Source: Pseudomonadota bacterium (GTDB lineage Bacteria; Pseudomonadota; Alphaproteobacteria; RF32; CAG-239). Taken from it: DNA of 32,325 nucleotides. Made by a program: the position numbers and the translations under genes. The DNA lies in NCBI GenBank assembly GCA_030536665.1, contig JAUNPO010000003.1, forward strand, positions 1 through 32,325, in the 5' to 3' direction. The notes under the pieces were generated by a model. It ran no database searches. It was not told the DNA's origin and saw only the letters and a list, made by a program, of their open reading frames with translations. Shown piece by piece: positions 14,591 to 23,959 of the stretch (position 1 is its first letter; every line of letters starts with the position of its first letter).

Positions 14591-14678
14591 GGAGAGTTGG
14601 CAGAGTGGTAATGCAGCGGATTGCTAATCCGTCATCGTGAATAACGATGCACAGGTTCGAGTCCTGTACTCTCCGCCA
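14591..14678 (+). tRNA. tRNA-Ser (anticodon GCU)
   Basis: GGAGAGTTGGCAGAGTGGTAATGCAGCGGA-TTGCTAA-TCCGT, long variable arm, GGTTCGAGTCC, CCA end. Confidence 0.95.
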
Positions 14679-14681
14679 TTT

Positions 14682-14705
14682 GGAGCGCTTAGGCGCTCTT
14701 TTTTT
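14682..14705 (+). terminator. Terminator after tRNA-Ser(GCU)
   Basis: GAGCGC-ttag-GCGCTC plus T-run. Confidence 0.75.
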
Positions 14706-14706
14706 A

Positions 14707-14735
14707 TTGACTATTTTCCGGAATTAAAATAACAT
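14707..14735 (+). promoter_or_regulatory. Sigma70-type promoter driving leader A
   Basis: TTGACT-17bp-TAACAT, about 7 nt before the first leader hairpin. Confidence 0.7.
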
Positions 14736-14741
14736 CCTTTT

Positions 14742-14920
14742 TGCAGCGGCTGATTACCGTTGTGAGGTTTAGAACCCTCTTAAAAGTTTTCTGTTAATCA
14801 GATGTAAAAAACTGCCTTTTGGCTTATGGCTGGAAGGCAGTAGAATATGTTGAATATACTGCACTATTACTTTTAATAGGTTCTAACTTCCAGTCTCCTT
14901 TCATCAGGGAGGCTTTTTTG
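14742..14920 (+). ncRNA. C4/CI-like antisense RNA leader module, copy A
   Basis: Two 5' hairpins with target TTAGAACC and TTAAAAGT. Cloverleaf 14828-14895 (P1 GGCTGGAAG/CTTCCAGTC, P2 GCAGTA/TACTGC, P3 CTATTA/TAATAG) carries ACTTTTAA and GGTTCTAA. Terminator-like hairpin at 14892-14920. Confidence 0.7.
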
Positions 14921-14949
14921 TTTTATTCTATGCAAAATATGAGGAAGTT

Positions 14950-15621
14950 ATGAAAAAAAGTGTTTTGTTTTTGATGTGTTTTTTGTGTTCCTGCCGCTCG
15001 ATAACTTATCAGGACGTTAATCCGCTTATTCAGCCGAATGCCAACCTTTTGCCGGCTATGGAGAGTATTGTCGACGTCAGTAATCTGGAGGCGACTTACA
15101 CGGTCAGTTCCTATGCCGGGACGACCAACAATTTCGGGACGACGTTGGGAAATACAAATTGGGCTCAGACAACGGCTATTTCCGGCGTTTCATATAAAGA
15201 TCCGCGGGTTCAGGATGTTATTAATGTTTTCAACAAAGAAGTTAAGGAAAACATCACATCGCCTTATGGCGCTAAGAAAGGGTATATTGTTCTGACATTG
15301 GGATACAGAGGGGTGGATCAGTCGTTTATTTATCCGTTTGTGTCTTTGTTTAGCCTTGGAACCATAAATTTCTTCGGTTTTCCGGGAGATGAGGTGAAAC
15401 AGTCCTTGGAGGTTGAGGTCGAAATCCGCAATAACAACAAGGAGCTTGTCAAGCGTTATGTTGAGAATGTTATAGATACACAGTATGTTGCCATGTATTG
15501 GGGATATAGTAAAGACAATGTCTGGAGAAAAGTTGCGGCAGACAATATAAAACAGGCTTTGCAAAAAATCAGGGACAGAATTAACAGTGATGCCGCCGAA
15601 ATTAAAAAGAAATTGAAATAG
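14950..15621 (+). CDS. Putative lipoprotein
   Basis: MKKSVLFLMCFLCSC lipobox-type signal; GAGG RBS; internal hydrophobic segment. Confidence 0.75.
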   Translation: MKKSVLFLMCFLCSCRSITYQDVNPLIQPNANLLPAMESIVDVSNLEATYTVSSYAGTTNNFGTTLGNTNWAQTTAISGVSYKDPRVQDVINVFNKEVKENITSPYGAKKGYIVLTLGYRGVDQSFIYPFVSLFSLGTINFFGFPGDEVKQSLEVEVEIRNNNKELVKRYVENVIDTQYVAMYWGYSKDNVWRKVAADNIKQALQKIRDRINSDAAEIKKKLK

Positions 15622-15708: not shown

Positions 15709-16866
15709 TTACAAAGGATTGCTTTCAGGTGAAAGCAGTGCAATATAGCCGGCGTAAGCGTAAGTCTGTCCCCATTTTTTCTCGGAGGTATTCGTGATGA
15801 TTCCGAGCTTTATAAGGCGGTTGATTGAGCTGATAATTGTCGGGCGGGCAAGATTGATTTTCTTTTCAATTTCAGCAACGGTTAAAACCGGCTTTTGTTC
15901 AAATTGTTGCAATATTTCTAAAGCAGACGGATGAGCGCGACCTAAATCTTGCAGCTTATTTTCATCTTCAGCAAAAAGTTTTTGAATTTTGAGAATCGTT
16001 TTTCTGGCATCATCAGAGGTTTCAATAATTCCCTCCAGGAAGAAATTAAACCAGTTTTCCCAGTCGCCGTCATAACGGACATTGTTTAGGTATTCATAAT
16101 ATAATGAGCGGTTTTTCTTAAAAAATAAGCTAAGATAAAGAAACGGTGATTTTAAAATTCCTTTAACACATAAAAAGAACGTGATCAGCAGACGTCCCAA
16201 TCGGCCGTTGCCGTCTAAAAATGGGTGGATGGTTTCAAATTGCACATGAATCATTGCGGCTTTAATCAATGTAGGAATGTTATCTTCTTTATTCATAAAG
16301 ACTTCCAACTGTCCTAAAATATCCATCAGTTTATCCGGCGGACAGGGAACAAATCTGGCATTGCCCGGTCTGGTGCCGCCAATCCAGTTTTGTGAAGAGC
16401 GGAATTCTCCCGGCAGTTTGGTCTTACCTCGGGAATTTTTGAGCAAAATAGCGTGAATTTCCTTAATTAATCGCAAGGATAAGGGGAAGTTGTCATTAAT
16501 TCTTCTAATGCCATAATCCAGGGCAGTAACATATGATGACACTTCCGAAGCATCAGCAACGGGAATTCCTTGTGTCTGACTGGCTTCGTATTTCAGTAAA
16601 TCATCTAAAGTAGATTGCGTTCCTTCTATTTGAGAGGACAACAGCGCTTCTTTACGGACATACATATAATTGATAATCGCCGGATTAGGAACTGTTGAAA
16701 TAACGCCATTTAGGGCGCCAATCGCCTGATTAGCTTTTTCTAACAGAGGAGATATGGCTTCCAAATCAACAGTCGGCTTTGGTGGCAAGACATTCGGGAC
16801 ATATGCCTGATAGCTCTCGGAGCTTAGGGAACATTTAATCAATTTTCCTTGAATACCTCTTTGCAT
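15709..16866 (-). CDS. Fic family protein (class II) with probable C-terminal HTH
   Basis: Canonical HPFLDGNGRLGR motif; N-terminal SSQIEG autoinhibitory motif; GGAGG RBS. Confidence 0.93.
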   Translation of the reverse strand: MQRGIQGKLIKCSLSSESYQAYVPNVLPPKPTVDLEAISPLLEKANQAIGALNGVISTVPNPAIINYMYVRKEALLSSQIEGTQSTLDDLLKYEASQTQGIPVADASEVSSYVTALDYGIRRINDNFPLSLRLIKEIHAILLKNSRGKTKLPGEFRSSQNWIGGTRPGNARFVPCPPDKLMDILGQLEVFMNKEDNIPTLIKAAMIHVQFETIHPFLDGNGRLGRLLITFFLCVKGILKSPFLYLSLFFKKNRSLYYEYLNNVRYDGDWENWFNFFLEGIIETSDDARKTILKIQKLFAEDENKLQDLGRAHPSALEILQQFEQKPVLTVAEIEKKINLARPTIISSINRLIKLGIITNTSEKKWGQTYAYAGYIALLSPESNPL

Positions 16867-17038: not shown

Positions 17039-17100
17039 GAAATTGAAGTAGGGACAAAAGCCCCGGAAAAGTCAAATATTTCCGGGGCTTTGCTTTTGGG
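17039..17100 (+). repeat. 62-bp direct repeat, copy 2 (contains terminator hairpin)
   Basis: AAAGCCCCGGAAA...TTTCCGGGGCTTT; matches 15609-15670. Confidence 0.9.
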
Positions 17101-23693: not shown

Positions 23694-23722
23694 TTGCAAT
23701 AATCATGATGTTATGTTACGTT
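23694..23722 (+). promoter_or_regulatory. Sigma70-type promoter driving leader B
   Basis: TTGCAA-17bp-TACGTT with TG extension, about 7 nt before the first leader hairpin. Confidence 0.6.
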
Positions 23723-23728
23723 TTTGTT

Positions 23729-23935
23729 TAAGCGGCGGAGTTTTGCTGCTTAGGGCGTCAGAAACCCTTTTAAAATAAACAGTCGCCAAGCATAGCGACT
23801 TAAAACTATATGCCGATTTCTGTCATGGACGGATGTCGGCTAAATAAGGTTACGGCCAAATAAGCCGAGCCGTTGTTTGTTTATTTTATACGGTTTCTGA
23901 ACATCCGCCCGCCTTTATCAGGTGGGTTTTGTTTT
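23729..23935 (+). ncRNA. C4/CI-like antisense RNA leader module, copy B
   Basis: Two 5' hairpins with target TCAGAAACC and TAAAATAAACA. Cloverleaf 23827-23910 (P1 GGACGGATGT/ACATCCGCCC, P2 CGGCT/AGCCG, P3 GCCGT/ACGGT) carries TGTTTATTTTA and GGTTTCTGA. Terminator-like hairpin at 23907-23935. Confidence 0.72.
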
Positions 23936-23959
23936 AACTAGAACGAAAGGATGTTTAGA

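Follow-up and report, generated by a model that had tools for sequence, protein, structure and literature searches.

The window (the whole 32,325-nt stretch of DNA analysed) carries two copies of a structured leader, copy A and copy B, each with its own promoter-like site and a gene behind it (Table 1). Upstream of copy A are a tRNA-Ser gene and housekeeping genes (GatA, GatB, PfkB, NUDIX, ZIP). No family was found in Pfam, NCBIfam or PHROGs for the protein encoded downstream of copy A, nor for a Cys-rich protein and a 78-aa protein. The gene behind copy B matched phrog_6823, of unknown function, at 7.7e-30. Copy A had been described as a non-phage leader, and this holds both for its setting and for the lack of a PHROG match of its gene.

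The original prediction placed a promoter, hairpins, two boxes, a cloverleaf, a terminator and an RBS at copy A, and every element is present where it was placed. As it had also claimed, the P3 loop and the 3' junction of the cloverleaf are exact complements of two upstream segments (boxes b and a, respectively), and a terminator-like hairpin with a T-run precedes the RBS. The 18-mer covering ACTTTTAA and GGTTCTAA has a single occurrence in the window.

Table 1. Features of leader copies A and B in the window.
Feature	Position	Strand	Remarks
Copy A			
Promoter-like site	14707-14735	+	sigma-70-type, TTGACT-17 nt-TAACAT; 9/12 consensus matches
Predicted transcript start	near 14742	+	from the promoter-like site
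H1	14743-14763	+	5'-terminal hairpin; fold and alignment of 14 copy-A-type sequences
H2	14764-14779	+	hairpin, box a in or beside its loop
Box a	14769-14776	+	TTAGAACC
Box b	14780-14787	+	TTAAAAGT; single-stranded, immediately 3' of H2
H3	14790-14802	+	small hairpin; fold, weak alignment support (64% paired)
H4	14813-14839	+	alternative hairpin; 14813-14824 with 14828-14839 (5' strands of stems P1 and P2)
Cloverleaf	14828-14895	+	68 nt, three stems; MFE of isolated 68-mer and covariation
Stem P1	14828-14836 with 14887-14895	+	
Stem P2	14837-14841 with 14858-14862	+	
Stem P3	14864-14868 with 14875-14879	+	
b'	14869-14876	+	ACTTTTAA; P3 loop, exact complement of box b
a'	14879-14886	+	GGTTCTAA; 3' junction, exact complement of box a
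Anti-SD	14885-14891	+	AACTTCC; a' end and start of stem P1 3' strand, complementary to RBS GGAAGTT
Intrinsic terminator	14892-14920	+	stem 14892-14900 with 14906-14914, then T-run
RBS	14943-14949	+	GGAAGTT, of the downstream gene
Downstream gene	14950-15621	+	223 aa, ATG at 14950; signal peptide, lipobox-like N-terminus
Copy B (main subtype)	about 23694-23935	+	same part order as copy A
Promoter	23694-23699, 23717-23722	+	TTGCAA, TACGTT
Box a	23758-23765	+	
Box b	23771-23781	+	
Cloverleaf	23827-23910	+	followed by terminator
b'	23878-23888	+	
a'	23893-23900	+	
GGATGTT	23949-23955	+	
Downstream gene	23960	+	likely start ATG

The 184-nt copy A leader folded at -61.0 kcal/mol, compared with -40.6 ± 4.0 kcal/mol in 200 shuffles (z = -5.1), and 0/200 shuffles were as stable. 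The MFE of the isolated 68-mer was exactly the proposed cloverleaf, at -21.6 kcal/mol (z = -3.7; 1/200 shuffles as good). H1 had 86.7% of its cells paired in 14 copy-A-type sequences, with changes on both sides in 6/7 pairs. Copy A is predicted from its sequence to be a real structured leader RNA, beyond chance. In the intact leader the MFE was a long-range duplex of a:a' and b:b' together with H4, instead of the cloverleaf. The expectation that the cloverleaf is favoured and conserved is borne out by the isolated 68-mer and by covariation, but not by the MFE of the unprocessed leader.

A multicopy leader family with private address codes

No sequence copy of copy A turned up when it was compared by BLAST with the window and the genome, and the family first became detectable solely via sub-threshold matches of the sRNA-Xcc1 model in the genome. 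The boxes of copy B differ from those of copy A, yet they compensate (pairs TCAGAAAC/GTTTCTGA and TAAAATAAACA/TGTTTATTTTA). Copy B scored 32.2 bits with sRNA-Xcc1 (gathering score 53) and 92.5 bits with covariance model R1, which was built solely from 12 main-subtype copies. With R1 copy A scored 36.2 bits (E = 1.2e-7 in 63 kb), a score which supports the assignment of copies A and B to one family. The promoter of the main subtype (TTGCYA, 17 nt, TG-n-TACCCT) lies in the same place as that of copy A.

Covariance model R2 scored copy A at 70.6 bits and had 48 matches in the 1.94-Mb source genome. Matches were present in 24/24 other genomes searched from the same bacterial family, and in 14/150 other genomes of a class sample, one of which (G065) is unpublished. 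Copy A is one of more than 40 such leaders in the genome of this small gut bacterium. The leader family is large and lineage-specific, with three main subtypes. The leaders were said to escape ORF annotation, and they are indeed invisible to gene callers and also to Rfam at its thresholds; at gathering score Rfam reported only two tRNAs over the window. The multi-copy nature of the leader (more than 40 copies) had been missed in the original prediction.

In 30 cloverleaf sequences of three subtypes, 94.8% of cells were paired and 18/19 pairs had changed on both sides. None of the shuffles (0/500) was as high, and slid controls were 34-49% paired. The alignment across subtypes was model-guided; a MAFFT version shifted stem P1 by one column, and RNAalifold then gave 4 pairs only. 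The complementarity of a:a' and b:b' was kept by compensating changes in 26/26 main-subtype copies of the source genome, where the copies are paralogues and counts over them are therefore not independent. It was kept in 12/13 copies of the second subtype, with the cognate partner best in 12/13. In the copy-A subtype (14 sequences from 13 genomes) the a:a' helix was 92% paired and 4/8 pairs were compensatory. Here b and b' were complementary by eye in 14/14 sequences, and because of indels only 63-69% paired in MAFFT columns.

Address-pairing statistics were taken exclusively from anchored box extractions in the main and second subtypes. Among the 26 main-subtype copies the cognate duplex had -21.4 ± 1.4 kcal/mol and the non-cognate duplex -8.8 ± 2.8 kcal/mol. 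The cognate partner was best or tied best in 26/26, and 25/26 a+b combinations were distinct. A cruder all-against-all duplex test with 115-nt upstream windows, into which 44 elements were entered and 4 skipped for short upstream sequence, placed the cognate first in 18/40 elements; it was noisy, constant GC-rich parts pairing among themselves. The address codes are orthogonal, and the parts, their conservation and covariation and the competing helices are demonstrated features of the family.

Relation to known antisense RNAs

Like the c4 RNA and a1b1 element of phages P1 and P7 (RF01695, RF03163, clan CL00128), the leader family has parts of the same order and shape, starting with a promoter. 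For phage P1 the Rfam alignments show a pair of neighbouring 5' hairpins, the second of which holds a1 in its loop; b1 comes next, and some 70-100 nt on there is a three-way junction. Its P3 loop (10-12 nt) carries b', and a' lies in its 3' junction (7-8 nt; 7 nt in phage P1); the leader family is alike in each of these. Copy A has the three-way junction of the C4/CI class, both in the isolated fold and by covariation on 30 sequences, and an a1b1-like element with adjacent hairpins, a in the second loop, b next to it and the complements kept. In the C4/CI class RNase P cuts at the 5' end of stem P1 and yields a stable RNA of about 77 nt. Stem P1 here begins with GGC, GGA, GAC or GAG, partly like the GGW motif quoted in PMC5320573, where, in the passages concerned, C4-type boxes are described as variable specificity determinants.

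The differences are also clear. Stem P1 has 9 bp in copy A and 17 bp in the Rfam C4 consensus. Unlike phage P1 c4, the leader family has a stem P2 with a large AAUA-rich loop, an intrinsic terminator overlapping stem P1, and a chromosomal, non-phage setting with more than 40 copies. Phage P1 has a second, downstream target (a2/b2) at the RBS, which is absent from the leader family. When effectors were paired with the 220 nt downstream, the own sequence gave -17.5 and non-cognate sequences -17.1 kcal/mol (ranks 1-25), and the longest exact complement was 5.9 nt for both cognate and non-cognate sequences. No cognate a2/b2 target was found there, so the classical c4 mode, in which b' masks the RBS, does not apply.

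By score the likeness is faint. The Rfam C4 and c4-a1b1 models had been proposed as a check; neither matched around copies A and B at E ≤ 10, so copy A is not a member by score. The whole-genome search with Rfam C4 (gathering score 45 bits) gave 0 matches among the 150 of 270 candidates that were scored. The same model scored 68.8 bits on phage P1 and 74.9 bits on P4. In the phage P1 and P4 loci the best match of R2 (filters off) was exactly c4 and CI, with weak scores (13.4 bits, E = 0.049 for c4; 11.2 bits, E = 0.17 for CI). The view of copy A as a divergent C4/CI-class member is upheld by its architecture; copy A departs from that class in the Rfam score, the downstream target and the setting.

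The CI RNA of P4 pairs with seqA and seqC, which leads to premature transcription termination (PMC4825925), and in the account given there the gene for this antisense RNA lies within the leader of the operon under its control, with a complementary target upstream, an arrangement also seen in the leader family. On P4 the Rfam C4 model falls on CI at the score given above, and c4-a1b1 and isrK match the region upstream of it. P4 has a second target downstream, seqC, and several terminators, whereas here one terminator lies directly 3' of the cloverleaf. Briani et al. in 2000 reportedly placed one P4 terminator between seqA and cI.

Like IsrK of Salmonella Gifsy-1 (RF01394), the leader family has two alternative folds and a long-range helix. 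According to the relevant passages of PMC4825925, the inactive fold of the IsrK leader is closed by a long-range helix and competes with an active alternative. The balance is tipped by RNA of the same locus; IsrK targets its own read-through RNA in trans. Matches of the Rfam isrK model to phages P1 and P4 overlap their a1b1 region; around copies A and B the model gave no match of at least 50 bits and none at E ≤ 10. IsrK is a short 5' RNA that ends at a terminator ahead of a C4-like part; here no T-run follows H3 (behind box b) in the three main subtypes, copy A included.

The nearest family by score is sRNA-Xcc1 (RF02221). Its model had 22 sub-threshold matches of 22-35 bits in the source genome, with none reaching the gathering score of 53 bits (genome best 35 bits) and none at copy A, and scored 40-44 bits on three distant loci. 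R2 in turn scored 32 bits on two true sRNA-Xcc1 members (62-63 bits with their own model), so that a relationship is supported both ways, at sub-threshold scores. The two true members have the same layout as the leader family, with differing compensating codes. By eye they also show a real terminator behind box b and a b-like copy at the RBS, neither of which is found here. sRNA-Xcc1 is reported to be an integron-borne trans-acting sRNA.

Acinetobacter baumannii has many-copy C4-like sRNAs (Group 1) which are processed from longer transcripts and have variable specificity loops (PMC5320573). As described there, these match the Rfam C4 motif and belong to a gammaproteobacterium, and the leader family does neither. 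A per-copy upstream a/b box, a terminator overlap and RBS complementarity are not in the main-text passages of that source. Its copy lists and coordinates may bear on the novelty of the per-copy upstream target.

Competing folds around stem P1

H4 was 94.8% paired in the 14 copy-A-type sequences, and H4-like pairing was found in the MFE of 12/13 distant loci. In 27/27 leaders the MFE consisted of the a/b duplex, H4 and the terminator. The cloverleaf was 11-27 kcal/mol worse than this default fold in intact leaders; when a and b were blocked in silico it became merely about equal to the H4 fold. In copy A the first 4 nt of the terminator are the last 4 nt of the stem P1 3' strand. The overlap is only 3-4 nt and is present in all subtypes by eye.

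The start of the stem P1 3' strand is complementary to the RBS. Exact 7-mer complementarity was found in 31/68 elements, with class-specific pairs (GGATGTT/AACATCC, GGAAGTT/AACTTCC and GGGAGTT/AACTCCC). The second subtype has the shorter GGAGCT/AGCTCC, taken from rows matching 5-6 of 7. Anti-SDs of other classes matched 7/7 in 2% of comparisons. SD:anti-SD pairing occurred in the read-through folds of 21/31 elements; in that of copy A, ACUUCC pairs with GGAAGU. Inside one subtype the RBS match may be inherited.

A leader peptide starting from an ATG in the H4 strand was considered and rejected by eye: H4 loop lengths differ by non-multiples of 3, and the reading frames disagree between copies.

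Proposed working, rival readings and significance

The reading that we consider probable is that of a self-addressed leader family on the c4/CI/IsrK/sRNA-Xcc1 plan, with the stem P1 3' strand as hub, H4 as its competitor and a predicted regulation of the gene behind. Its function is likely to be self-addressed control of termination and translation, as modelled from the folds. That pairing regulates these two steps, with what sign, and whether in cis or in trans, is what we infer from this arrangement. Each leader would be made from its own promoter. It carries address boxes a (in a hairpin loop) and b (just 3' of it), and about 100 nt downstream the cloverleaf offers an exact complement to each: b' sits in the P3 loop and a' in the 3' junction. 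The stem P1 3' strand has three options: it can pair with the stem P1 5' strand to give the cloverleaf, provide the base of the intrinsic terminator with its last 3-4 nt, or pair through its first nucleotides with the RBS of the following gene. The conserved upstream strand of H4 is a competitor for the 5' strands of P1 and P2.

By default, H4 and the a:a'/b:b' duplex would let the terminator form and leave the RBS masked in read-through RNA, and therefore the gene would be off. Formation of stem P1, either after processing or once a partner RNA fills the address boxes, would occupy both the terminator base and the anti-SD, and therefore the gene would be on. With a private a/b code each of the 40-odd leaders would respond only to RNA of its own locus.

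The most serious rival is a purely cis-acting structured leader, an attenuator responding to a ligand, a protein or temperature, in which a:a' and b:b' are a closing helix and the box differences are neutral compensatory drift among old paralogues. We regard it as unlikely, though with a real chance of being right. It agrees with the ordinary nested long-range helix that a:a' and b:b' form in every intact-leader MFE, with the failure to find a second target in the 220 nt downstream, and with the way in which H4, stem P1 and the terminator play the parts of segments 1-4 in a classical attenuator. Boxes a and b also vary about as much as the promoter spacer, a presumably neutral stretch, and positive selection on the code is thus not demonstrated. 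Against this reading, the H1, H3, P1 and P2 helices are nearly invariant over 26 copies whereas a and b differ in almost each, and the a/b duplex is nearly without G-U (454 Watson-Crick and 6 G-U among 460 pairs) whereas H4 and H1 are rich in it. The layout is moreover that of trans-acting modules (phage P1, P4 and IsrK), and an unsystematic look identified no conserved unpaired pocket hinting at a ligand site.

The cloverleaf and terminator may otherwise be a stand-alone sRNA gene with targets elsewhere, for example in phage or mobile DNA sharing the code, the a/b boxes being a mask or sponge and the gene a mere neighbour. The strong terminator immediately 3' of the cloverleaf would suit such a gene; sRNA-Xcc1 and, in the passages cited above, the A. 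baumannii Group 1 RNAs are classed as sRNAs, and the interrupted copy C25 retains a/b boxes identical to those of the intact copy C53 on another contig. We nevertheless hold this reading to be very unlikely: across subtypes the RBS and the stem P1 3' strand co-vary, a tie between leader and gene, the terminator-to-RBS distance is short and conserved, and a crude genome scan (a, then at least 7 nt of b) returned mostly cognate sites and the elements' own complements.

On the opposite strand the a/b duplex is equally good (-21.5 vs -21.4 kcal/mol), so the pairing by itself would allow either strand; what assigns it are the promoter, terminator and RBS, together with the G-U pairs of H1 and H4. 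A DNA-level feature, with inverted repeats marking a mobile cassette or recombination site and no RNA, would make use of such perfect inverted repeats (a/a' and b/b'), and of leaders that shift among unrelated genes (the G005 leader is 89% identical to copy A but has a different gene behind it) and an insert of about 270 nt with terminal inverted repeats in the P3 loop of several copies, but it is hardly credible when promoter, terminator with T-run and RBS share one strand, the G-U pairs of H1 and H4 become A-C mismatches on the other, three nested helices show RNA-typical compensatory change and the architecture is common to known RNAs.

The self-addressed leader reading can be carried further. 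The leaders may be self-addressed bistable switches, tipped to the cloverleaf by same-code RNA in trans with positive feedback, an idea which we think quite unlikely. The released RNA would be either the cloverleaf with a' and b' or the 5' part with a and b, and only nascent leaders of the same code would leave the fold with terminator and masked RBS and adopt the cloverleaf. If this were true, about forty paralogous genes for secreted and surface proteins could be toggled independently and heritably with the DNA unchanged, and the family would be both an RNA-based phase variation system and a natural set of orthogonal riboregulators.

C4/CI-type antisense modules are textbook phage immunity devices. 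On the self-addressed reading, a device of this type would have been adopted by the chromosome of small-genome gut Alphaproteobacteria, where the leader serves as a standard 5' part for whole families of secreted-protein and lipoprotein genes. Part of the reason why these metagenome assemblies are fragmented probably lies in the leader copies. The phage-type downstream target would give way to a compact hub, a single strand having the choice of cloverleaf, terminator or RBS masking; this is a testable design for coupling the control of transcription and translation. With dozens of copies in one genome, whose address boxes vary on a constant scaffold, the family would be a natural library of orthogonal riboregulators, and its copies would be ready, mutually non-interfering RNA address pairs for probing the sequence needed for specificity.

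Anatomy and family of the leaders

Checked against the sequence, every part that the original prediction listed for copy A (14707-14920) is present at its predicted position, including the exact complements of the upstream address boxes a and b within the cloverleaf, as shown in the table. Folded by itself, the 68-nt segment takes exactly the proposed cloverleaf form (−21.6 kcal/mol, z = −3.7, 1/200 shuffles equal), and the 184-nt leader reaches −61.0 kcal/mol against −40.6 ± 4.0 for shuffles (z = −5.1). Copy A lies directly 3' of a tRNA-Ser gene and that gene's terminator. Its neighbourhood holds housekeeping genes and a Fic-family gene and no phage genes, in agreement with the proposed non-phage leader.

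Features of copy A, its surroundings and the P3-loop insert
Feature	Position	Strand	Remark
Promoter, sigma-70-type match	14707-14735	+	TTGACT, 17 nt, TAACAT
Hairpin H1	14743-14763	+	
Hairpin H2	14764-14779	+	TTAGAACC (box a) in and beside loop
Box b	14780-14787	+	TTAAAAGT
H3, small hairpin		+	3' of box b
H4	14813-14824 with 14828-14839		alternative to P1 and P2
Cloverleaf, 68 nt	14828-14895	+	three stems
b'	14869-14876	+	ACTTTTAA, exact complement of box b
a'	14879-14886	+	GGTTCTAA, exact complement of box a
Terminator hairpin and T-run	14892-14920	+	
RBS, then ATG	ATG 14950	+	GGAAGTT, 3' of terminator
tRNA-Ser and its terminator	14591-14706		anticodon GCU (by aligned loop); immediately 5' of copy A promoter
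Second class-II tRNA	2244-2330	−	long variable arm
Direct repeat, 62 nt, 94% identity	15609-15670 and 17039-17100		contains terminator-like hairpin; flanks the Fic/DOC-family gene
Fic/DOC-family gene	15709-16866	−	C-terminal winged-helix domain
P3-loop insert, source genome	C25:14119-14386, C175:1140-1407, C75:2066-2333		contig ends C62, C108, C133, C135, C40

Copy B (about 23694-23935) has its parts in the order of copy A, with different but compensating boxes. Neither copy reached the gathering score of any Rfam family; the C4 and c4-a1b1 models, which the original prediction had named for comparison, failed to match either copy at E ≤ 10, as did isrK. The copy B cloverleaf scored 32.2 bits with sRNA-Xcc1 (gathering score 53). 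Across the source genome (1.94 Mb, 229 contigs, 93% complete) this model gave 22 sub-threshold matches (22-35 bits), spread over many contigs, whose flanks have a single common architecture. R1, a covariance model of 12 cloverleafs of the main subtype (that of copy B), found 26 intact copies there (82-98 bits) plus five with an interrupted P3 loop. Since R1 contains no copy-A-type sequence and yet gives copy A 36.2 bits (E = 1.2e-7 in 63 kb), copies A and B are members of a single family. A second model, R2, drew on 30 sequences from three subtypes and gave 48 matches at E ≤ 0.1, five of them interrupted copies by inspection.

In at least five leaders an insert of about 270 nt with perfect inverted repeats of 22-26 nt sits exactly in the P3 loop, at the b' site; it does not occur in the source genome outside P3 loops. 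Insert-bearing copies are followed not by a terminator but by another, AT-rich leader some 110 nt long. Five contigs end at the insert's repeat, and C40 holds the inner part in another arrangement. From its sequence, the insert looks like an invertible segment or a MITE.

The genes 3' of the leaders encode Cys-rich secreted paralogues of about 260-330 aa, small 78-aa proteins and lipoprotein-like proteins, the last including the genes of copies A and B; Pfam and NCBIfam have no family for any of these types. The copy B gene matches a PHROG of unknown function. Its start is ATG 23951 in the ORF list, but ATG 23960 better fits both the RBS GGATGTT (23949-23955) and a signal peptide, MKKVFLLL. 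The Cys-rich protein has more than 20 paralogues in the source genome (pattern MNINFKFLLLGTSLSL...AQC...VRPVLAF, e.g. C114:31542-31633 and C135:1191-1275), none with a Pfam, NCBIfam or PHROG match, and a leader of this c4-like family stands 5' of nearly all of them. Their C-terminal part may resemble DUF1566-type domains, a likeness that the searches do not support.

Among relatives, R1 matched 24/24 other genomes of the same bacterial family (1-33 matches each) and 1/16 genomes of other families. In the class-wide sample R2 matched 14/150 other genomes, mostly of 0.9-2.5 Mb, or 13/149 without the unpublished G065; among the distant loci, inspection of the 13 best by eye showed complementary upstream boxes. 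Named genome records, scanned with a pattern, yielded matches on numerous contigs of gut and rumen MAGs, under the labels Alphaproteobacteria, "uncultured Azospirillum" or Rhodospirillales; elsewhere the scan gave single matches that are probably due to chance.

Conserved helices and the address code

In the 30-sequence alignment 94.8% of cloverleaf cells are paired, with both-side changes at 18/19 pairs; 0/500 shuffles reached these values and slid controls gave 34-49%. Fitting this alignment to the model biases it towards the structure, yet in each of the three stems the sequence changes from subtype to subtype. Pairs were also counted in a MAFFT alignment of the copy-A subtype (14 sequences from 13 genomes). 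Stem P1 is 100% paired without variation, P2 100% (compensatory 4/5), a:a' 92% (compensatory 4/8) and H1 86.7% (compensatory at 6/7 pairs). For b:b' the value is only 63-69% because indels disturb the columns; by eye the boxes are complementary in 14/14.

For the 26 main-subtype copies, box regions were cut by alignment columns and all 26 x 26 duplexes computed. Cognate duplexes averaged −21.4 ± 1.4 kcal/mol against −8.8 ± 2.8 for non-cognate ones, and the cognate partner was best or tied best in every copy. Ten a loops and 21 b boxes give 25 combinations in the 26 copies, C171 and C74 having one code in common. In the second subtype the cognate was best in 12/13 (−14.8 against −7.3 kcal/mol). 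The a/b duplexes consist of 454/460 Watson-Crick pairs and six G-U pairs; H4 and H1, by contrast, contain many G-U pairs. H1, H3, P1 and P2 are near-invariant among main-subtype copies, and the boxes vary as much as the promoter spacer. We read the boxes as probable free-coded specificity determinants, their variability not proving positive selection.

A sister-species leader (G005:C25:21570-21732) shares 89% identity with 14735-14925, the cloverleaf body being unchanged; box a differs from that of copy A at about three positions, a' does so at about as many with compensation, and another gene lies downstream. Leaders of this kind thus appear to pass from gene to gene, and their code to change faster than the scaffold.

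Relation to phage c4/CI and sRNA-Xcc1

In the reference phages P1 (AF234172) and P4 (X51522), the Rfam C4 model scored 68.8 bits on c4 and 74.9 on CI. In phage P1, c4-a1b1 lies about 70 nt 5' of c4 (51.0 bits; 44.1 in phage P4, below the gathering score of 46.7), and in both phages an isrK match overlaps this upstream region. By Rfam structure lines and sequence, the phage P1 order is H1, H2 with a1 in its loop, b1, a terminator-like hairpin, the junction RNA, whose 12-nt P3 loop holds b' and whose 7-nt junction holds a', and then a2 and b2 at the RBS. Immediately upstream of c4, ACGCCC has its complement, GGGCGT, on the 5' side of c4's P1 stem, an arrangement that, in the one phage compared, resembles H4.

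The C4/CI assignment of the original prediction thus stands for the plan, which is that of phage P1 as far as the cloverleaf, and not for Rfam C4/c4-a1b1 scores or for a2/b2. Unlike phage P1 with a2/b2 and phage P4 with seqC, these leaders lack a cognate downstream target: the effector, the cloverleaf bearing a' and b', gave −17.5 kcal/mol against its own 220 nt downstream and −17.1 against non-cognate ones, the cognate ranking from 1 to 25. The top R2 match at each phage locus is exactly c4 or CI, with P3 and junction in register, though the scores are low, 13.4 bits for c4 and 11.2 for CI (E = 0.049 and 0.17). Of 150 genomes sampled across the phylum, R2 matched one, twice, both matches being true sRNA-Xcc1 (62-63 bits by Rfam). 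These two share the layout of our family and carry two different compensating codes, but by eye a real terminator follows their box b, and their RBS bears a b-like copy. Since the plan is that of c4/CI, the layout that of sRNA-Xcc1 and the scores sub-threshold, we place the leaders, on sequence grounds, as a divergent relative of sRNA-Xcc1 in the c4/CI architectural class, by score outside every Rfam family.

Competing folds and a proposed switch

That the cloverleaf is favoured holds for the isolated segment, where stem P1 forms in 32/36 cases, but not for the intact leader. In 27/27 intact leaders folded, the MFE combines H4, the a:a'/b:b' duplex and the terminator, 11-27 kcal/mol better than any P1-containing fold. 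In H4 a conserved upstream strand pairs with the 5' halves of stems P1 and P2 (94.8% paired in the copy-A subtype), and H4-like pairing is part of the MFE in 12/13 distant loci of quite different sequence. P1/P2 and H4 are thus both conserved, and each pairing excludes the other.

By eye, the terminator stem begins with the last 3-4 nt of the P1 3' strand in every subtype looked at. The start of this strand and the last two junction nucleotides are complementary to the RBS, as an exact 7-mer in 31/68 elements (GGATGTT/AACATCC, GGAAGTT/AACTTCC or GGGAGTT/AACTCCC by class); the second subtype has a shorter GGAGCT/AGCTCC, from rows with 5-6 of 7 matching. This anti-SD is class-specific, a full 7-of-7 match with a sequence of another class occurring in 2% of comparisons. 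Because copies of the same subtype are related by descent, what counts as evidence is the handful of switches between subtypes. In read-through RNA folds the SD paired with the anti-SD in 21/31 and elsewhere in 10; five had no SD match. A separate fold of copy A also paired the two. H4 and this terminator/RBS hub go beyond the original reading.

C4-like RNAs in many copies per chromosome have been reported for A. baumannii (PMC5320573). The literature passages searched describe no alphaproteobacterial family of such c4-like leaders, no cognate upstream box for each copy, no H4 alternative and no terminator plus RBS hub.

What the sequences show is the set of parts, the helices that compete and a largely private code per copy; an action on termination and on the RBS is our inference. 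The default fold would terminate transcription and mask the RBS, and address pairing in cis would lock it; once stem P1 formed, neither the terminator base nor the anti-SD would be free any longer, and the gene would be on. When boxes a and b are blocked in silico, energy hardly separates the H4 fold from the cloverleaf fold, and folding therefore does not fix the proposed trigger or the sign of regulation. According to PMC4825925, IsrK shifts the balance on its own read-through RNA, and phage P4 CI does so for termination. By analogy, an RNA of the same code could shift the fold balance of these leaders in trans.
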